Part shown: piece by piece, positions 486 to 12,842 of the stretch
Position numbering within the stretch: position 1 is the first letter of the stretch
How the letters are laid out: every line of letters begins with the position of its first letter
Origin: Bacteroidales bacterium
GTDB lineage: Bacteria > Bacteroidota > Bacteroidia > Bacteroidales > ML635J-15
Reading direction: 5' to 3'
NCBI GenBank assembly: GCA_007130555.1
Contig: SLSH01000305.1
Location: 1-28,508 of the forward strand
DNA length: 28,508 nucleotides
Notes under the pieces: model-generated
Told to the model about the DNA's origin: nothing
What the model saw: the letters and a program-made list of their open reading frames with translations, nothing else
The model's database searches: none
Translations under genes and position numbers: made by a program

Positions 486-2672
486 CTAAATCTCAATATT
501 CGTAATTTTATCTGTTAATTTATAATCATATTCGGGATATTCGTAAATTTTCAGGATTTTTTCGGTTTCGCCTATTGAATATCCCCAAATAGTTTTATAA
601 TCGGAAGCATTTTCTCCTATTGATTCTAATTGATTCAGATATTCTCCGATTGATTTGGATTCGATTATTACTACCTTCCCCATTTTATGTATTATCGGAC
701 TGTGACTGCGCGTATGGTCATGGTCAAAACACAAAATTCTTCTTCCGTATCTTGTTATTCCTATTACCCTAAAAGTAAGGCTTTTCCCTACTCCCGGAAG
801 ATTCAGCACATTTCTTCCGCTTGCGATAAAAGGAAGCGAGTATTTATCAAGGAGTTTGGTCAGATTTTTTTGCAGAGTTTCGGGCTTTTCAAGTAGTTTT
901 GTTAGTTCATCGCTGATTTTTTTATCAAAATCCCCGAAATCTTTTTCTTCTATTTGTTCCTGAACGGCTCTGGCATTTGTGGCAAAATTATAACTGTTTT
1001 CCATATATCCTTTTACAGAAAATATATAGTATGATAATACGCCAATTTCATTAAGAGTTTTTCTTAATTTTGCCGTGTGTCCTCTTCGTGAGCCGGCAGT
1101 TGAAAATACATGTTGATTTGTAATAATCCATCCTGCATTTAATAATTTGCTTACGGTATTTTTTGCTTCGGGGGTTATTTCCATAGGAGTCTGAAAATGA
1201 GTTTGAATTACAAACTGCTTTAATCCCGCTTTTTGAGCATTAACTCTGAAATCCTTTAATATTTCAACAAGCTTGTCGTTAACTCTTTGTGGCAGATATG
1301 CCAAAAGTCTTGTCCCTAATCTTATTCTTAAAATTTCGGCGTTTTTTTCTCCGTCGGGAAGAGTTTTATTTTTTTCTTTTTTGCGGATTGTCATCTCTAA
1401 GACTTTGTCAAGAATTTCTTTCAAAGATTTATTGGAACTCATCAATGCATCTCCGCCTGTAATAAGGATATCTCTGAGTTGAGAATCTTCTTCCCAGTAT
1501 TTCATTATTTTATTTAATTTTCCAGCCCATTCTTGTGATGGTTTAAGTTCTTCAAGGTCAAAATTCAGATTTCCGCTTTGGAAGTCATACATTCTTTGAC
1601 AGCTTGAACAAAGTCCTCCGCATGCACGACCTGTTGTGTCGGGGATAAGTATTGCCACTTCGGGATATCTTCTGTGGACATTGCTTTTTGTCGGCAGTAT
1701 CCATCCTGCAGCATTCGGTTTCCCTGGTTCTACTTCATCTTCTTTTTCCCATGCAACAATGTCTCCGAACTCATTTACAAGTTCTTCGCTGTAAAAAATA
1801 TAATCTCTGATACTAAGATCTGCACCTACCGCAAAATCAGGAGCTTTAATATTCAGAAGAGACAAATAATATGGATTAACAAAAAACGGTATTCCTGTTT
1901 TTTCGGCTCTATACATAATTTGCATGGTTTCCGGGTCAACGGAGTGGTCCAGCATATCATTTAACAAGTCGGGATTTCTTATGGCAAAAGATAAATGAAA
2001 ATTATAATCTTCCCACCACTCAAGCATTTTGTTAAATTTTTCTTCATAAGATTTTTCTTTCTCAAATTTATATTTTGGACAGGATAATTCGCCTGAGTCA
2101 ATTTTACTTATAAATACATTAATTATTCTTTTTTTGTTTTTCTCTCTGATTTTAACAATTCTTGTATCCAAACCTGACGGGAAATTTTTCATCCAGTCTT
2201 TAAGTTGTTCTCTTTTAGGTTTTTCTTTTTTTAAGCTTCCTCTGAACTGTCTGAATAAAAAAAGCATATCCCTGAAAAATTCTGTACTTCCTCCTCCGTT
2301 TCCTTTGTTTACGGCTTTCCAAAGAATATTAATCGGTTCATTTATTACCAAATCTCCTTTAAGGTTTAAGTCTTCGTATTTTTGTCCTGAGTTATCAATA
2401 TAATCCAGTAATCTTATCGCAGCAAAATCCTGCCATGATAATTTATTATAAATTTCTGTTCCTTCTTTTTTCCCTTTATAATAATCATAAGCTTCAGTAC
2501 GGGTAATAATATAGTCTGAAGTCATTTTTTTTACTCCATTAAGAGCTTCTTCGGGATTTTTCGCATTCTGCAATATTTCTGCCAATTCTGAATTTTCTTT
2601 CAGGAGTTTTTTTAAAATCTTATGTGATTTAATTGAAATTGAAACTTTGTCTAAATTATTGTTTTTCAACAT
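486..2672 (-). CDS. KamA-family radical SAM/PLP aminomutase, long form (728 aa), paralog 1
   Basis: HRRYP..A, CxxxCxxC (C351GGLC355SSC358) followed by QR, DILITGGDAL, RIRLGTR, QTHF, NQHV and LPGVGK (putative PLP Lys630). Carries a ~300-aa N-terminal extension relative to LAM. Substrate uncertain, so no symbol is given. Confidence 0.9.
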   Translation of the reverse strand: MLKNNNLDKVSISIKSHKILKKLLKENSELAEILQNAKNPEEALNGVKKMTSDYIITRTEAYDYYKGKKEGTEIYNKLSWQDFAAIRLLDYIDNSGQKYEDLNLKGDLVINEPINILWKAVNKGNGGGSTEFFRDMLFLFRQFRGSLKKEKPKREQLKDWMKNFPSGLDTRIVKIREKNKKRIINVFISKIDSGELSCPKYKFEKEKSYEEKFNKMLEWWEDYNFHLSFAIRNPDLLNDMLDHSVDPETMQIMYRAEKTGIPFFVNPYYLSLLNIKAPDFAVGADLSIRDYIFYSEELVNEFGDIVAWEKEDEVEPGKPNAAGWILPTKSNVHRRYPEVAILIPDTTGRACGGLCSSCQRMYDFQSGNLNFDLEELKPSQEWAGKLNKIMKYWEEDSQLRDILITGGDALMSSNKSLKEILDKVLEMTIRKKEKNKTLPDGEKNAEILRIRLGTRLLAYLPQRVNDKLVEILKDFRVNAQKAGLKQFVIQTHFQTPMEITPEAKNTVSKLLNAGWIITNQHVFSTAGSRRGHTAKLRKTLNEIGVLSYYIFSVKGYMENSYNFATNARAVQEQIEEKDFGDFDKKISDELTKLLEKPETLQKNLTKLLDKYSLPFIASGRNVLNLPGVGKSLTFRVIGITRYGRRILCFDHDHTRSHSPIIHKMGKVVIIESKSIGEYLNQLESIGENASDYKTIWGYSIGETEKILKIYEYPEYDYKLTDKITNIEI

Positions 2673-2721
2673 AAAATTAAATATTATTTAATAAGGATTT
2701 GTAATTTGTTAATAAACGGGG

Positions 2722-2753
2722 CTAAAGATAATAAAATATAAGAACCCCTGCAA
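2722..2753 (-). promoter_or_regulatory. Putative own promoter of KamA paralog 1 (TTG-N20-TATCTTTAG)
   Basis: ctaaagata at 2722-2730 reads TATCTTTAG on the - strand, a variant -7 element. caa at 2751-2753 reads TTG, 20 nt upstream, which fits Bacteroidota -33/-7 spacing. Confidence 0.4.
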
Positions 2754-2800
2754 TTTTTTTTGATTTTCTGTTTGCAGCTTCTCAGAACACGATAAACCGG

Positions 2801-4996
2801 TTATGATAAATCAATATTTGTAAGTTCTTCGGTTAATTTATAATTGTAATCGGGATATTCGTAAATTTGCGGTCTTGGTTCGGTCTCGCCCAGAGAATAG
2901 CCCCAAATACTTTCATAATCATCTGCATTTTCTCCGATTTCTTCTAATTGCTGTAAATATTCGCTGATTGATTTAGATTCAATTACAATTATTTTTCCTA
3001 TTTTATGTATTATCGGACTATGACTTCTTGTCTGGTCGTGGTCAAATTCTAAAATCCTCCGACCATATCGGGTAATGCCTACAACTCTGTATGTCAGACT
3101 TTTACCGACACCCGGAAGATTTAAAACATTTCTGTCGCATGCAATAAACGGAATAGAATATTTTGTCAGGATTTTATTTATAATTGATTTTACTTTTTCG
3201 GGATGAGTAAGCAACTTATTTAATTCTTTACTTATCTTATCATCAACTTTTCCGTGAATTTTTTCTTCTATCTGTTCCTGAACTGCTCTTGCATTTGTGG
3301 CAAAATTAAAATTGTTTTCCATATATCCTTTAACCGAAAAAGTATAATATGGCAATACTCCGATTTCGTTAAGTATTTTTCTCAGTTTTGCAGTATGTCC
3401 TCTTCGTGATGATGCTGCAGAAAACACATGTTGGTTTGTAATAATCCATCCTGCATTTATTAATCGTTCGACTACTTTTTGAGCTTCGGGTGTTATTTCC
3501 ATTGGAGCTTCAAAATGAGTTTGTATAACAAATTGTTTTAATCCTGCTTTTTGAGCTTTTGTTTTAAAATCTTTTAAAATTTCAATTAATTCATCGTCAA
3601 CTCTTTGTGGTAAATATGCCAAAAGTCTTGTGCCTAATCTTATTCTCAACATTTCCGCAACTTTTTTTCCTTCAGGTAATTTTTTGTTCTTTTCTTTCTT
3701 TTTAATTGTCATTTCAAGAGTTTTGTCTAATATTTCTTTTAATGATTTATTGGAACTCATTAATGCGTCTCCTCCTGTAATAAGGATATCTCTGAGTTGA
3801 GAATCTTCTTCCCAGTATTTCATTATTTTATCCAGTTCTCCCGACCATTTTTCGGTAGGTTCAAGTTTTTCGAGGTTAAAATTCAGGTTTCCGCGTTGAA
3901 AATCGTACATTCTTTGACACGAAGCACAGAGCCCTCCGCAGGCACGTCCTTTTGTTGCAGGAATAAGTATCGCCACTTCGGGGTATCTTCTGTGAACATT
4001 ATGATGTGTCGGCAGTATCCATCCTGCTGCATTTGGTTTGCCGGGTTCTACTTTATCTTCTTTTTCCCATGCAACAATATGTCCGAATTCTTCAACCAGT
4101 TTTTTACTGTAAAGTACATAATAACGAATTGCCAGGTCTGCTCCTATAGCGAAATACGGTACTCTTACGTGTAATAATGATAAATAATAAGGATTTATAA
4201 AAAACGGAATTCCTACTTTTTCGGCTTCGTACATAATTTTCATTGTGTCGGGATCTAAAGAGTTTCCCAGCAGTTCGTTCAGTAGTTGAGGAGACCTGAC
4301 TGCAAAAGACAAATGAAAATTATAATCATCCCACCATTCTAACAGTTTTAAAAATTTTTGCTCATGAGACATTTTGGGAGCAAATTTATACTTAGGACTT
4401 AATAATTCACCGGAATCAATTTTAGTAATAAAAATTTCTATAATCCTGTCTCTGTTTTCTTCGCGTAGTTTAACAATTCTCGGGTCAAGTCCCGAAGGAA
4501 ATCTGTCCATATATTCGGCTAATTGTTCTTTACCCGGGATTTTTCGTTTATAACTTCCTCTGAATTGGCGAAACAGGTATAACATATCTTCAAAAAAGAA
4601 AGGCTTGGCACCACCTGTTCCTTTTGTTACAGCCATCCAAATCATCTTTATGGGGTTACTTACCGCAAGTTCTCCTCTTAAATTCAAATCCTCATATTCT
4701 TGTCCGGCATTGTCAACATAGTCTAATAGTCGGATTGCGGCATAATCCTGCCATGACAATTTTTCAAAAAACTCTCTGCCCTGATTTACTCTTTTGTAAT
4801 AAGCATAGGCATCAGGACGATTTTTCATATATTCCATCACCCAGTTTTTGATTCCTACGAGAGCTTCGGTTTCGTTTTTTGCATTACGCATTATTTCTTC
4901 TAAAACGGGATTCTCTTTTAATAATTCTTTTAAAAGTCTGTGTGATTTTACTGTGATTGCAATTTGATCTAATCTTTGGATTTCCAGCATAAGCAT
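2801..4996 (-). CDS. KamA-family radical SAM/PLP aminomutase, long form (731 aa), paralog 2
   Basis: Same motifs as paralog 1: C353GGLC357ASC360QR, DILITGGDAL and NVLNLPGVGK (Lys632). Collinear with 486-2672 over the full length. The start could be Met1 or Met3. Confidence 0.9.
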   Translation of the reverse strand: MLMLEIQRLDQIAITVKSHRLLKELLKENPVLEEIMRNAKNETEALVGIKNWVMEYMKNRPDAYAYYKRVNQGREFFEKLSWQDYAAIRLLDYVDNAGQEYEDLNLRGELAVSNPIKMIWMAVTKGTGGAKPFFFEDMLYLFRQFRGSYKRKIPGKEQLAEYMDRFPSGLDPRIVKLREENRDRIIEIFITKIDSGELLSPKYKFAPKMSHEQKFLKLLEWWDDYNFHLSFAVRSPQLLNELLGNSLDPDTMKIMYEAEKVGIPFFINPYYLSLLHVRVPYFAIGADLAIRYYVLYSKKLVEEFGHIVAWEKEDKVEPGKPNAAGWILPTHHNVHRRYPEVAILIPATKGRACGGLCASCQRMYDFQRGNLNFNLEKLEPTEKWSGELDKIMKYWEEDSQLRDILITGGDALMSSNKSLKEILDKTLEMTIKKKEKNKKLPEGKKVAEMLRIRLGTRLLAYLPQRVDDELIEILKDFKTKAQKAGLKQFVIQTHFEAPMEITPEAQKVVERLINAGWIITNQHVFSAASSRRGHTAKLRKILNEIGVLPYYTFSVKGYMENNFNFATNARAVQEQIEEKIHGKVDDKISKELNKLLTHPEKVKSIINKILTKYSIPFIACDRNVLNLPGVGKSLTYRVVGITRYGRRILEFDHDQTRSHSPIIHKIGKIIVIESKSISEYLQQLEEIGENADDYESIWGYSLGETEPRPQIYEYPDYNYKLTEELTNIDLS

Positions 4997-6382: not shown

Positions 6383-6625
6383 ATGGAAGACACATTAGTA
6401 ACATTAGTAAAATATAGGTACGAGTATCGTGCTCATATACTTAGGGATAAACTTGAAGAGATAGGCATAACATGTGCCGTTTCGAACTTGTCTGTATTTG
6501 GAGAAATAGATGGCGTAAAAGTAATGGTTATGCAAAAAGATTTTGATAAAGCTTTAAAGATTTATCAGGAAATACGTAATTTATATGATAATCATTCCGA
6601 TGATGTAATTGAGGAAGGCGATTAA
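6383..6625 (+). CDS. DUF2007-like small putative signal-transducing protein (80 aa)
   Basis: LVTLVKY.YEYRAHILRDKLEEIGI.C ... GVKVMV.QKDFDKALKI fits the DUF2007 pattern (A.l++..Le..GI ... v.v.V...D...A..i). Confidence 0.7.
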   Translation: MEDTLVTLVKYRYEYRAHILRDKLEEIGITCAVSNLSVFGEIDGVKVMVMQKDFDKALKIYQEIRNLYDNHSDDVIEEGD

Positions 6626-9600
6626 ATTAAAGTTTTTAACTCTTCCATTACCAGTTTTTTAACAGGTTCTCTTTTTTTACGGGCAGTTTCGGTAAAGAAC
6701 TTATGTTCTGTCATAAATTTATACTGAAATTTATTCCATTCTTGTATAGTATTTACTTTTCCTCTTTCGAACAGTTCCCTGAATAAGTTTTGTGAAATAG
6801 GTATAAAATCAGGTCTTCCGAGATAGTCCAGGTCGGCATCACAAATTATTTTTTCCAGTAAATCTTTAGGATTCGGAGGCATTTTTGTGGCTAAAATCAA
6901 TCTTTCAACTGTAGCTATTTGGTCCTGTGAAAATTTATATTTCCGCAATGTTTGTGTCGCCATTTTTGCTCCGATTTTTTCATTATCATCATAACTGACT
7001 AAAAAACCCGCATCATGAAAAAGTGCGGCGCATTTTAATAAGAGCATTTCTTCTTCGTTAACCTTTTCTTTTCGGGCAAAATTTTCTACTACATACAGAA
7101 CATTAAGCGTATGCTTTAAATTATGATAATAAAGATTTTTCGGAAGATTTTTTTCTAATTGTTCCAAAATTTCTTCCTGTATGTCTTTTAATTTTATATG
7201 TTGTAGTTTTATCAAAAAATCCCTGTTAGGTAATAAGGAATTATGTCCTTCGGATAATTCTGCCTTAATATTATTAACCAGATACATTTCAAGCTCACCT
7301 TTATATTTTATATTGATTTTTCCTCTGTGGGTACAATCAAAAAAGTCTTGTATATAACTGTGAGTGGATTGTGATACATTAACTTTGTTGACAAGTCCGT
7401 GCGACTCCATTCTACTGGCAATATTAACGGCATCACCCCAAATATCATACTCTAATTTATTTGAGCCAACAACACCCGATACTACAGGTCCTGTATGTAT
7501 TCCTATTCTTAATTTGATTTTTAAATCATTTTCCTGATTATATAATTTGATTTTATTTTGCATTTCCATTCCTGCCAATACAACTTCTATCGGATTTGTT
7601 TTTTCCGCAACAGGTATTCCTCCCGCACACATATATGCATCACCTATTGTTTTGATTTTCAGGATATTATATTTTATTATAATTTTATCAAAGTCAGAGA
7701 ATATATTGTTAAGGCATGTAATAAGTTTTTCGGTATTCTCTTTTTCGGCAATTTTTGTAAATCCTTGTATATCTGCAAATAATACCGACACCATTTCATA
7801 TTTTTGTGATTTGGCTTCTCCTGTTTTTTTAATTTCGTCAGCAGTATAATCGGGTAAAAGTTTTTTTACCAGTTTTTCGGTTTGTTCTTTTTGATGCGAC
7901 AGTTCATTTGTACGTTGTTCTACTAATTTTTCGAGTCTGTAATGTTCTTTGGCGTGTCTTAATTCATTTAGTTTTAAAATCAGATAAATTAAAGCTCCAA
8001 GTAATAATACATAAAATATATATGCATAAATTGTTTGATAAAAAGGAGGTATAACTTTAAAATATATTGCAGTCTCTTCGCTGATGTTTCCGTACACATC
8101 TCTTGCACGTACCATAAAAACGTATTCTTTGCCTGTCAGGGCAGTATATTCCTTGAAACATTCCTGTGTCCATTCCGACCATTCCGAATCAAATCCTTTA
8201 AGAAAAACCTGAAATTCATTACTTCCGTATGAATTATATTGTAAATAAGTAAAATCAAATCTTACGGATTTATCGGAAAACAAAATTTCAAATTTATTTT
8301 CCCGACTGCTATCAAAATCAGGAGGAATATAAATAACAGAATCGTATCCGATTGTTATTTCTCTTATAAAGCATGGAGCAGTACTTTTGTGTATATCATA
8401 AAAATTATGTTTATATTTAATTAAAGATTCTGTTGTACCAAACCATATATTATCATCTGATTCCGCATAAATTGATTCTATCGGGAATTTTCGTATTAAA
8501 GCAAATGGATTAATAGTTTTTGTATATGTATTGTCTTTTTGATTAAATAATGCGACTCCTGTTTCTTTGTAATATTTATTTGAAAAAGTACAGCTAAACC
8601 ATAGATTTTTATTTTTATCTTCAATAATAGGATATATATACATATTTTCTTGTTCAAAATCATATCCTAAAAGAGTATCATATTCAAATCTGTTAGTATT
8701 GTAATTATAATTAAAAAGACCTTTTTGAGTAGAGAACATTGTTCCGAAGCTTTGCTGATAAACATCAACCCAGTTAAATCTTTTAGGGAATGCATTCTTT
8801 TCATTAAAACTTAAAAAATCGGTATTTGTTTTATAATCTCCGTTAAAGTTTAATTTAAATAATCCGTCTGCATTTGTGCCCAACCAAACTGTTCCCGTTT
8901 TATCAATGTTTATAGTTCTTATATTATAATTTAATCCTTCTACATATCCGATAGTGTCAAAATAATTACCGGATATTTTACTTATTAATAACCCATTACT
9001 GCCACCAATCAAACATATTTTAGGATTAATTTCGGATTGAACAATTTTATTGTATTGTCCCTCAAGTGCTTTTATTGCTCTGTTGTTTTTAATAAGAAAT
9101 ACTCCTGATGAACTTGCGGCAAATAAGTTATTATTAATTTCCGACAGATGCCATGTTATATTACTAATTCCGTCGATTCTTCGAAATCTTTTTCTGTTAT
9201 TGAATTCAGATATCTCCGTTTCATAAATGTTTCCGTAAAAATATCTAAAAACTCCGGTTGTCGTTGCGACATAGAGGGAATTGTCTTTTCTCAGCACAGA
9301 TATAATTGCTCCATTAAGCCCGAAATTTACATCGAAAAAATCAAAAGGAGAAGGAGTTTCTATCAGAGCAATTCCATTATATGTAGTTACCCAAACTTTA
9401 TTATTAATATCAATATAAAGGTCGGTAATATGATTATCTCTTAATCCGTTATTTCTGTTTAAAGCAAAAATAAATTCCCCTTTATTATTTATACATACAA
9501 TTCCTCCCAACCTTGTTCCGATAATAATATTACCATTTGACAGATTCGTACTTACAGAGTATTTGTTTTGTAACATAAATAAATCTGCCTCTGTCCGAAA

Positions 9601-10293
9601 ACGATATAATCTGTTATTTTCATAAATTAAAAATCCTCTTTGATTTTCGGGTTTTATTAAAATTTGTCTGTCATTTAATTCATACATATCCAAAATATGT
9701 GTGTTTTTAAGTTTGGTAAAATTTTCGGCAGGAATAATTTTTTTGTTTTTCCACGTAAATAGTCCTTTATTTGGAACAAACACATATAGTTTGTCATGGA
9801 TTTTAAAAATATTTATACCTCTGATATTAGATAACTGAACCTCAATAGTGTCATCAATATATGATAATAGCTGATGTGAAGTTGAAAAAAACACTTCGTC
9901 TTCAAATGCAAGAATTTTATTTATTTGTCCGGGATTAATTTCTTTTTTGTAATTAAATAATTCTGTACTTAAAAGACCATTTTTATGAACTAATTTTCCA
10001 AGTTGATTGTATCCTCCGAAATAAATCTCATTTTGCGAATTAATATCCATTTCAGGACGACCTGCTACTGGTATTAATCTCCATGATGAATTATCATATT
10101 CCATTATTCCGTTTACATTACCAAAATACATTAAGTGGTTTTGGTCTTGTATTATAGAAAAATTTTGGCTTTCCTGAGCATAAGTAATTGGCGAGATGTT
10201 TTTAAAACTGGGAATACCATGCTCTTTATTCTGGGAAAGAATATTTGCTGGAATTAGCAATATAAAAAACAAATAAATAAAAATTCTTCTCAT
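6622..10293 (-). CDS. Membrane-anchored sensor: beta-propeller repeats + Y_Y_Y domain + TM + class III adenylate cyclase + C-terminal HD domain (1223 aa)
   Basis: Signal peptide; two-component-regulator propeller repeats (IDKTGTVWLGT, EDKNKNLWF); Y_Y_Y-type FQVFLKGFDSEWSEW..KEYTALTGKEYVFMVRARD; TM YAYIFYVLLLGALIYLIL; cyclase motifs VLFADIQGFT, KIKTIGDAYM, RIGIHTGPV, YDIWGDAVNIASRMES; HD motifs YHNLKHT, FHDAG, CDADLDYLG. Confidence 0.9.
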   Translation of the reverse strand: MRRIFIYLFFILLIPANILSQNKEHGIPSFKNISPITYAQESQNFSIIQDQNHLMYFGNVNGIMEYDNSSWRLIPVAGRPEMDINSQNEIYFGGYNQLGKLVHKNGLLSTELFNYKKEINPGQINKILAFEDEVFFSTSHQLLSYIDDTIEVQLSNIRGINIFKIHDKLYVFVPNKGLFTWKNKKIIPAENFTKLKNTHILDMYELNDRQILIKPENQRGFLIYENNRLYRFRTEADLFMLQNKYSVSTNLSNGNIIIGTRLGGIVCINNKGEFIFALNRNNGLRDNHITDLYIDINNKVWVTTYNGIALIETPSPFDFFDVNFGLNGAIISVLRKDNSLYVATTTGVFRYFYGNIYETEISEFNNRKRFRRIDGISNITWHLSEINNNLFAASSSGVFLIKNNRAIKALEGQYNKIVQSEINPKICLIGGSNGLLISKISGNYFDTIGYVEGLNYNIRTINIDKTGTVWLGTNADGLFKLNFNGDYKTNTDFLSFNEKNAFPKRFNWVDVYQQSFGTMFSTQKGLFNYNYNTNRFEYDTLLGYDFEQENMYIYPIIEDKNKNLWFSCTFSNKYYKETGVALFNQKDNTYTKTINPFALIRKFPIESIYAESDDNIWFGTTESLIKYKHNFYDIHKSTAPCFIREITIGYDSVIYIPPDFDSSRENKFEILFSDKSVRFDFTYLQYNSYGSNEFQVFLKGFDSEWSEWTQECFKEYTALTGKEYVFMVRARDVYGNISEETAIYFKVIPPFYQTIYAYIFYVLLLGALIYLILKLNELRHAKEHYRLEKLVEQRTNELSHQKEQTEKLVKKLLPDYTADEIKKTGEAKSQKYEMVSVLFADIQGFTKIAEKENTEKLITCLNNIFSDFDKIIIKYNILKIKTIGDAYMCAGGIPVAEKTNPIEVVLAGMEMQNKIKLYNQENDLKIKLRIGIHTGPVVSGVVGSNKLEYDIWGDAVNIASRMESHGLVNKVNVSQSTHSYIQDFFDCTHRGKINIKYKGELEMYLVNNIKAELSEGHNSLLPNRDFLIKLQHIKLKDIQEEILEQLEKNLPKNLYYHNLKHTLNVLYVVENFARKEKVNEEEMLLLKCAALFHDAGFLVSYDDNEKIGAKMATQTLRKYKFSQDQIATVERLILATKMPPNPKDLLEKIICDADLDYLGRPDFIPISQNLFRELFERGKVNTIQEWNKFQYKFMTEHKFFTETARKKREPVKKLVMEELKTLI

Positions 10294-11930: not shown

Positions 11931-12842
11931 TTAAAATATCGAAGAAGTTTTTGTTGTAAATAATTCCAGAAATTTCATCCCTCTGTATGAGTTTCCTTTA
12001 CTGTTTAATTTCGGGCTCCATACAACAATTGTGTGTTTATTCGGATGGATTGCCAAAATTCCTCCGCCAATACCGCTTTTGCCAGGCAAACCTACTTTAA
12101 AGGTAAATTCTCCCGATTCATCATAAAGTCCGCAAGTTTGCATTATTGCATTTATTCTTTTTGTTCTGCTTTTATTTATTATCTGCTTATTGTCTGAAAC
12201 TTTACGACCTTGATTTGCAAGAAACAAAAAACAGTTTGAAATTTCCCTGCAACTCATTTCTATTGAGCACAGATTAAAATAAAAATCAAGAACTTCTTCG
12301 CTGTCGTTTTTTATATTACCAAATGATTTAATAAAATTACACAATGCGATATTCCTGAATCCTGTTGACTTTTCGGACTTTGCTATTTTCGGCGAAAATT
12401 TTATTGAGGGATTATCTGAAATATATCTCATAAAAGACAGAAAATCCTGTTGCGGATTATCTAACTGACTTATAAGAATATCGCACACAACGATTGCTCC
12501 TGCATTAATAAAAGGATTTCTAGGAATCCCTTTGTCAGCTTCTAACTGGACAAGCGAATTAAAAGCCGTTCCTGACGGCTCTACACCTATTCTCTTCCAC
12601 ATTCTTTTGCCTAATATTTTATATGCTAAACTTAGAGAAGCAACCTTAGCAATACTTTGAATCGAAAATTTATCGTTAAAACTTCCGAAACCAAATTCAT
12701 CATTATTTACCGTTTTAAAAAAAACTCCGAAATGTTCAGGATTAACACCCGATAACTCAGGTATAAAAGAGGTAACCTGTCCTTTGTTCTCTTCATTTTT
12801 TATAGTTTCGTAAATATCTGTTAAAATTTCCCGGTAATTCAT
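11931..12842 (-). CDS. glsA: Glutaminase (serine beta-lactamase-like fold)
   Basis: FSIQSIAK (catalytic SxxK), GVEPSGTAFNS, PRNPFINAGAI, YFNLCSIEM, MQTCGLYDESGEF..VGLPGKSGIGGGI, WSPKLNSKGNS. Confidence 0.95.
   Translation of the reverse strand: MNYREILTDIYETIKNEENKGQVTSFIPELSGVNPEHFGVFFKTVNNDEFGFGSFNDKFSIQSIAKVASLSLAYKILGKRMWKRIGVEPSGTAFNSLVQLEADKGIPRNPFINAGAIVVCDILISQLDNPQQDFLSFMRYISDNPSIKFSPKIAKSEKSTGFRNIALCNFIKSFGNIKNDSEEVLDFYFNLCSIEMSCREISNCFLFLANQGRKVSDNKQIINKSRTKRINAIMQTCGLYDESGEFTFKVGLPGKSGIGGGILAIHPNKHTIVVWSPKLNSKGNSYRGMKFLELFTTKTSSIF

Follow-up and report, generated by a model that had tools for sequence, protein, structure and literature searches.

A tandem pair of long KamA-family genes

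The stretch of DNA analyzed here, referred to in its whole length of 28,508 nucleotides as the window, is a contig (C297) of a 2.6-Mb Bacteroidales metagenome-assembled genome (MAG) that is 87% complete, and 99% of its DNA was found in a sequencing run labelled soda lake metagenome. On its minus strand lie two intact open reading frames (ORFs) in tandem: the upstream gene, P0002, occupies positions 2801–4996 and encodes 731 amino acids, and the downstream gene, P0001, occupies positions 486–2672 and encodes 728. The two proteins are 71% identical and their genes are separated by an intergenic gap of 128 bp. We assign P0001 and P0002, as tandem paralogs, to a large and very conserved branch of ~730-aa proteins within the KamA group of radical S-adenosylmethionine (SAM), pyridoxal phosphate (PLP)-dependent 2,3-aminomutases. 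All positions given below for parts of the two genes are window coordinates on the minus strand.

In the lysine 2,3-aminomutase (LAM) of Clostridium subterminale, Arg134 binds the α-carboxylate of the substrate, Asp293 and Asp330 bind the lysine ε-amine, and Lys337 holds PLP. In the glutamate 2,3-aminomutase (EAM) of C. difficile, Lys and Asn reportedly replace both of these Asp residues, a finding credited to Ruzicka and Frey in 2007. An earlier reading of the window, made by eye and called here the original prediction, had claimed that both long proteins carry this same Lys/Asn (K/N) pair, and when we located the motifs again in the two translations all of its residue numbers proved correct. 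P0001 contains the cluster motif C351-x3-C355-x2-C358-Q359-R360 (1593–1622), in which R360 stands at the position of LAM Arg134; the sequence I550-F-S-V-K554 (1011–1025), with K554 at the position of Asp293; and the sequence G619-R-N-V-L-N624-L-P-G-V-G-K630 (783–818), with N624 at the position of Asp330 and K630 as the PLP lysine. The motifs of P0002 are the same with residue numbers higher by two, except that Thr replaces Ile in YY(I/T)FSVK: the cluster motif is C353-x3-C357-x2-C360-Q361-R362 (3911–3940), K556 stands at the Asp293 position in T552-F-S-V-K556 (3329–3343), and D621-R-N-V-L-N626-L-P-G-V-G-K632 (3101–3136) aligns with the third motif of P0001. The PLP-lysine loop P-G-x-G-K is thus present in both proteins, ending in K630 or K632, with a glycine loop one residue shorter than that leading to Lys337 of LAM.

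Placement of the specificity residues on lysine 2,3-aminomutase

The placement of K554 and N624 on Asp293 and Asp330 was borne out by HMMER, MAFFT and hhalign alignments and by the range of a structural superposition. The only match in the PDB by HMMER was 2a5h, in an alignment that stopped at YYIYQ/YYIFS and placed D293 on K554. In a MAFFT alignment with the canonical LAM of the same genome, whose numbering is that of the C. subterminale enzyme minus one, D292 and D329 fell on K554 and N624, and K336 fell one residue after K630. With hhalign, a profile of the 730-aa family built from 100 sequences matched the LAM profile with a probability of 99.7% and paired FSVK with YQCD, and the profile of a sister family of ~600-aa proteins paired its VFNVP-x-x-GK with VVDAPGGGGK of LAM. 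The distance from K to N (or from Asp to Asp) is 37 residues in LAM, 38 in the 600-aa family and 70 in the 730-aa proteins, the last because of a 32-residue helical insert that has no counterpart in LAM or in the 600-aa family. In P0001 the region between the specificity residues comprises approximately residues 556–616 (825–1007), and the insert corresponds to helices at about residues 584–611. The presence of K and N at both lysine-binding Asp positions, in both paralogs, was thereby confirmed.

The original prediction had proposed that an AlphaFold model be compared with LAM, and this comparison also came out in its favor. The AlphaFold2 (AF2) model used here was built from 118 diverse sequences and was confident, with a predicted local distance difference test score (pLDDT) of 90.6 and a predicted template modeling (TM) score of 0.93; it superseded a first model, built from 22 close homologs, in which the active site was poor (pLDDT 64.5). 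The model took the LAM fold, superposing on 2a5h_A with a Z score of 33.4 and a root mean square deviation of 2.8 Å over 338 residues, whereas the next structural matches were unrelated radical-SAM proteins at Z ~13.7. The superposed range, model residues 177–662 on chain residues 3–391, takes in both specificity sites. In the model a strand from 546 to 552 is followed by K554, N624 lies within a strand from 620 to 625, and K630 lies within a strand from 629 to 631. The predicted locations of these three residues match those of the corresponding LAM residues by position along the chain.

What P0001 and P0002 have in common with LAM (KamA/AblA of C. subterminale, 2A5H) is therefore the fold, the CxxxCxxC motif, the carboxylate-binding Arg and the PLP-lysine loop; what sets them apart is the change of Asp293 to Lys, of Asp330 to Asn and of Cys268 to Ser, together with a length greater by ~310 residues.

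Conservation of the signature in two long families

The 730-aa family has more than 8000 database members of ~729 aa, and the genome collection contained at least 589 carrier species. In an alignment of 100 of its sequences, old divergent paralogs included, K554, N624, K630, R360 and the three Cys residues were invariant (100/100). The 600-aa sister family, which turned up in an exhaustive search, was represented by 130 aligned sequences, 128 of which had the K and 129 the N. Because the pair is invariant in the 730-aa family and nearly invariant in its sister family, we conclude that its placement is not due to chance.

The two families are homologous over their full length, residues 16–698 of the one aligning with residues 22–620 of the other (hhalign E = 5e-76), and this homology includes the helical N-terminal extension, which in P0001 comprises about residues 1–215 (2028–2672). 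Members of the 600-aa family, found in Desulfurivibrio alkaliphilus, Thiovibrio frasassiensis, Zixibacteria and Aminicenantes, resemble the 730-aa proteins in having the K/N/K/R signature and a Ser-Arg-Arg motif, but they are only 26–30% identical to them, lack their inserts and, unlike them, score above the cut-off of the KamA subfamily model TIGR00238 (318–344 bits).

Both long families share further differences from LAM, namely R334 (His in LAM), Q359 (Thr), R449 (Ile), R568 (Lys), S528 in place of the zinc ligand Cys268, the pair R529-R530, and E572/E575/E576. Ser528 was present in 99 of the 100 730-aa sequences; in P0001 it begins the motif S528-R529-R530 (1083–1091). The conserved basic residues R334, R449, R529/R530 and R568 are without a LAM counterpart, and such additions would suit a substrate with an anionic side chain. 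Conserved in both long families and absent from LAM, R529/R530 are candidates for extra anion binders.

A separate lysine enzyme in the same genome

Homologs of P0001 and P0002 carry the JGI name 'lysine 2,3-aminomutase', and LAM is the sole relative with a solved structure, both of which would suggest that the paralogs act on lysine. We consider this very improbable. Both residues that bind the lysine ε-amine are replaced, the replacement is invariant, and the zinc ligand Cys is lost. The LAM model TIGR03820, which stands for EC 5.4.3.2 and has a cut-off of 525.4 bits, gave only 92.0 and 88.6 bits for P0001 and P0002, respectively. Moreover, the genome has a true LAM of its own. This canonical enzyme, on contig C245 (L001:3-2520), contains YYIYQCD and VVDAPGGGGK, scores 562.5 bits and hence above the LAM cut-off, and directly follows genes resembling those for 3-keto-5-aminohexanoate cleavage enzyme (kce) and 3,5-diaminohexanoate dehydrogenase (kdd), so that the genes on this contig look like a lysine-fermentation cluster. 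The LAM gene runs off the end of the contig, and its C-terminal piece is seemingly on contig C98. Since lysine is served in this genome by a LAM with both Asp residues (D/D), the long paralogs are not its lysine enzyme.

These observations upheld the original claim that the pair are not lysine aminomutases. The accompanying statement that lysine-fermentation genes were absent was true of the window but not of the genome, and the presence of the cluster on another contig strengthened the claim rather than weakening it. Neither epmA nor efp was detected in the scanned ORFs of the window or next to the 730-aa gene at 79 loci from other genomes. The EpmB model TIGR03821 (cut-off, 369.3 bits) gave 57.7 bits for P0001 and 61.5 for P0002.

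Relationship to glutamate 2,3-aminomutases

Its scores set the 730-aa family apart as a divergent outlier within the KamA superfamily, and the equivalog model that matched it best was that of EAM, TIGR04368, for EC 5.4.3.9. The EAM model outscored the LAM model in every long protein tested: by 119 to 92 bits in P0001 and 110 to 89 in P0002, by 102–104 to 88–96 in three distant 730-type proteins, and by 223–233 to 182–191 in 600-type proteins. The same ranking was obtained for the genome of M. jannaschii, where an E-value titration placed the best match to the EAM model between 1e-60 and 1e-50 and that to the LAM model between 1e-50 and 1e-40.

Structural comparison pointed in the same direction. 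When the model was compared by Foldseek with the reviewed proteins of Swiss-Prot, the best match was MJ0634 of M. jannaschii (UniProt Q58051), an uncharacterized KamA family protein of 620 aa, with a TM score of 0.65 by query and 0.76 by hit. As this match covers query residues 11–698, the N-terminal extension is common to both proteins. The identity of MJ0634 to the long proteins described here is only ~23%, it is archaeal whereas they are bacterial, and they are longer by ~110 residues, which form five or six extra inserts, the 32-residue helical one among them, and a C-terminal tail. The second reviewed match was the EAM of C. difficile (Eam; Q185C5, 422 aa), likewise a radical-SAM and PLP enzyme, with a TM score by hit of 0.73 and ~20% identity. 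Its alignment began at query residue 154, and it therefore shares with the long proteins a segment, 154–217, that is absent from LAMs, but the initial ~150 residues of the extension are missing from it, and it has neither the helical insert nor the C-terminal tail. All of the LAMs among the reviewed matches ranked below EAM and began at query residue 217 or 218. The alignments of short clusters in the Atlas, including one with the automatic name putative glutamate 2,3-aminomutase, started at query residue 151 or 152, and positions 3–13 of the TIGR04368 profile matched residues 146–180 of the long proteins. Because the segment 151–217 is common to the EAM-type matches and not to the LAMs, it connects both long families with the glutamate branch. 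One Atlas cluster of the 730-aa family is itself auto-named 'Glutamate 2,3-aminomutase' and belongs to a new Pfam family, DUF8427.

The methanogen glutamate 2,3-aminomutase MmarC7_1783, described in 2022, is said to have an N-terminal extension of ~160 residues; it was reportedly assigned by the same substrate-residue logic as that used here, and the assignment confirmed by the appearance of β-glutamate after expression in a methanogen. By the title of its report and by later citations, this enzyme of Methanococcus maripaludis C7 is connected with β-glutamate and salt tolerance (Tunckanat et al., Biochemistry 2022, 61:1077). For P0001 and P0002, the original prediction of a glutamate-type, anion-friendly distal site agreed with all of the computational tests that were run, among them those that showed the K/N pair, the added Arg residues, the loss of the zinc ligand, the preference for the EAM model, the rank of the EAM structure and the separate LAM of the genome.

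Searches of 201 and then 401 genomes, belonging to the same phylum and class as a Clostridia MAG with the 730-aa gene, gave no canonical EAM above the TIGR04368 cut-off, and the best matches to the model in those genomes were LAMs with D/D. A tblastn search of plasmids with LAM gave ablA, blsG and AblA-like genes and no EAM. A metagenome protein of 1357 aa (P0217) combines a DnaJ domain and a 600-type aminomutase core with a long unassigned region and the end of an M54 (archaemetzincin) peptidase; we rejected it as a fusion clue, as it is probably an artefact of gene-call read-through, or else uninformative.

Distribution and gene context

Among 291 good Bacteroidales genomes sampled, the 730-aa type was present in 62 (51 of 200 genera), the 600-aa type in 11, and both in 2; both are also present in an Aminicenantes genome. 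Named carriers of the 730-aa type include Perlabentimonas gracilis, Ancylomarina euxinus and a Saccharicrinis strain, and the family occurs also in Ignavibacteria, Aminicenantes, Nitrospinaceae, Myxococcota and others. It was not found in three genomes of the window organism's own family, and Bacteroides thetaiotaomicron was left out of the carriers because its KamA-like signal did not reach the strength expected of the 730-aa type. The sample names of many carrier MAGs refer to soda lakes, brine or marine sites, in a list that is biased to relatives of a soda-lake query. Copies ~73% identical to P0002 and nested in the Bacteroidales clade were seen in MAGs labelled Ignavibacteriales, Patescibacteria and Chrysiogenales (L008, L011, L014 and L021), reflecting either gene transfer between soda-lake organisms or mis-binned contigs.

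ORF clustering and a Pfam tally of the flanks revealed no conserved gene partner across the 79 loci from other genomes. The 730-aa gene usually stands alone, with divergent or convergent neighbors; the commonest was a convergent RlmN gene, found at 10 of 65 loci as a matter of local synteny, and MscS was found at 3 of 67. This context bears on the proposal that the enzyme is catabolic, interconverting glutamate and β-glutamate as the first step of a fermentation rather than making an osmolyte. Such a role would fit the organism, which is anaerobic and fermentative and has a lysine-fermentation cluster, and what purpose EAM serves in clostridia is reportedly not settled; however, no downstream pathway genes accompany the gene at any of the 79 loci, and the window comes from a soda lake. 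We regard the catabolic alternative as quite unlikely. An osmolyte role is no more than plausible, on the basis of the soda-lake origin, the stand-alone gene and the patchy distribution.

Divergence of the two paralogs

In a neighbor-joining tree the pair appeared as a lineage-specific duplication inside the main clade. A tandem pair in the same order was found in a JGI metagenome contig (L121:4721-9190) with different flanks, including a gene for CDP-diglyceride synthase upstream. The upstream copy of this contig was 80.8% identical to P0002 and the downstream copy, P0003 (L121:7001-9190), 74.3% identical to P0001, and in the tree P0001 and P0003 together were sister to P0002. The common arrangement suggests that the gene was duplicated before the two lineages separated. 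Apart from the L121 upstream copy, P0002 was up to 75.6% identical to its orthologs elsewhere.

The ratio of nonsynonymous to synonymous substitutions (dN/dS) was ~0.05 in both orthologous pairs, P0001/P0003 and P0002/L121 upstream; as dS was saturated, this value indicates purifying selection and nothing further. P0001 is the faster-evolving copy, with a dN of 0.18 relative to 0.14 and a median identity to the family of 60% relative to 67% for P0002, which is nearer to the orthologs elsewhere. Six positions that are conserved elsewhere in the family are changed in both P0001 and P0003. T550I and D619G are two of the six changes; at their positions the other 99 sequences show no variation (100% invariant), and they lie four residues before K554 and five residues before N624, respectively (1023–1025 and 816–818), which suggests that the pocket of P0001 has been tuned or shifted.

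The two paralogs may therefore be unequal, with P0002 retaining the ancestral activity and P0001 having acquired a new specificity, new kinetics or a new regulation, or having become a subunit of a mixed oligomer. The location of T550I and D619G, the faster evolution of P0001 and the retention of the pair under purifying selection in two lineages all favor this division of roles, and LAM is generally known to be an oligomer. On the other hand, the catalytic and signature residues of P0001 are all intact, and just six conserved positions are altered in both downstream copies. We hold such a division to be possible but doubtful; it is compatible with a glutamate substrate and does not exclude one.

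Second copies in other genomes are older and more divergent paralogs, with 55–62% identity. In three cases, a Pseudomonadota MAG (L060) and the loci L028 and L112, two 730-aa-type genes of this old kind (55–62% identical) lie side by side, indicating that tandem pairs arose or were kept more than once.

Surroundings of the pair in the window

Upstream of the pair, in the opposite orientation, is a galE-type epimerase gene. Downstream, 233 bp past the P0001 stop codon, a consensus scan detected a G+C-rich hairpin at 228–253 with a perfect 11-bp stem, preceded by A runs and followed by T runs; it is a candidate terminator for both strands that would close the pair. At a distance of 7 kb from the pair is a glutaminase gene (Pfam Glutaminase, E = 9e-108; 11931–12842, minus strand); its product yields glutamate, the proposed substrate, and no evidence links the gene to the pair. 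Also in the window, at 6622–10293 on the minus strand, is a gene for a 1223-aa protein with regulator-propeller repeats, a class III cyclase domain and an HD domain.

Discussion

We propose that P0001 and P0002 are putative glutamate 2,3-aminomutases that make β-glutamate, a proposal to which we give somewhat better than an even chance. As the residues that bind lysine are absent and those of the glutamate type are present, production of β-glutamate is the most likely activity. In the reaction that we envisage, SAM would be cleaved at a [4Fe-4S] cluster held by C351/C355/C358 to give the 5'-deoxyadenosyl radical. The α-amine of L-glutamate would form an external aldimine with the PLP otherwise held by K630/K632, its α-carboxylate would rest on R360/R362, and its γ-carboxylate would rest on K554/N624 and perhaps also on R529/R530. 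The radical would abstract a C3 hydrogen and the amino group would shift from C2 to C3, yielding β-glutamate. More tentatively, the product might serve as a compatible solute in the soda-lake host, with a single stand-alone gene sufficing for its one-step synthesis, and the kinetics or specificity of P0001 might be shifted by the two changed residues beside its specificity sites.

Several observations weigh against this proposal. The substrate of the 730-aa family is deduced from sequence and structure prediction, and the proteins scored far below the cut-offs of the relevant family models: for P0001 and P0002, respectively, TIGR00238 gave 150.9 and 143.1 bits (cut-off, 199.2) and TIGR04368 gave 119.2 and 109.7 bits (cut-off, 650). 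The residues flanking the site are not the same in the two long families, the 730-aa proteins having Y556, G531-H532, R620-N621 and Q490 where the 600-aa proteins have K, F-E, E-A or P, and V. Both types coexist in single genomes (G004, where the 600-aa gene is L105:669-2486, G423 and G435), which would be odd for strictly redundant enzymes and argues against simple redundancy. A simple free-amino-acid mutase leaves unexplained the extra domains and the ~60% identity across phyla. In a paper on riboswitches, eam (β-glutamate) appears among the osmoprotectant genes under Na+ riboswitches; at the pair in the window nothing credible was found in the way of a riboswitch or leader, and none that was salt-responsive. 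No RNA run was listed as containing the gene. Finally, early NMR work, as presented in a review of 2005, spoke against a glutamate aminomutase route in methanogens, but the 2022 methanogen paper supersedes that doubt.

The differences beside the site, the coexistence of the two types and the low scores of every equivalog model would also be expected if the enzymes were 2,3-aminomutases for another amino acid of acidic or polar character, 2-aminoadipate or glutamine for example, and if the K/N pair meant 'not lysine' rather than 'glutamate'. Against this, K/N is the only published signature for an acidic, non-lysine substrate, which in the published case is glutamate; EAM outranks LAM both in model score and in structural match; and no catabolic partners, such as a transaminase or a CoA-transferase, lie beside the gene in the loci examined. 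We therefore judge a different substrate to be unlikely, although it deserves more weight than a catabolic role, and retain glutamate as the preferred one. A broader extension of the glutamate proposal, that the 730-aa family is a widespread bacterial β-glutamate synthase providing a one-step osmolyte in saline or alkaline anaerobic sediments, with extra domains that are regulatory (responding, for example, to ionic strength) and a downstream paralog of second specificity, is in its entirety rather improbable.

The idea behind the original prediction was new only in part, for the residue logic (2007) and the methanogen glutamate enzyme (2022) had been published, and it is the 730-aa branch that had remained uncharacterized. 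Our literature search yielded no publication dealing with the 730-aa family itself and no report of β-glutamate for the carrier taxa. The branch elaborates structurally on an enzyme of a known kind, and its chemistry is not new; what does appear to be new is that P0001 alters two otherwise invariant residues next to its specificity sites.

These results have consequences for annotation, as thousands of database proteins are named lysine 2,3-aminomutase or generic KamA while being unable, by their residues, to hold lysine in the manner of LAM. The paralog pair offers a natural case for studying the divergence of the pocket in radical-SAM aminomutases. β-Glutamate is a compatible solute whose genetic link has so far been only to one clostridial and one methanogen enzyme. 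If the long proteins are indeed glutamate 2,3-aminomutases, many uncultured bacteria of sediments and soda lakes would make β-glutamate in a single step, and the 730-aa gene would be a simple marker for this trait.

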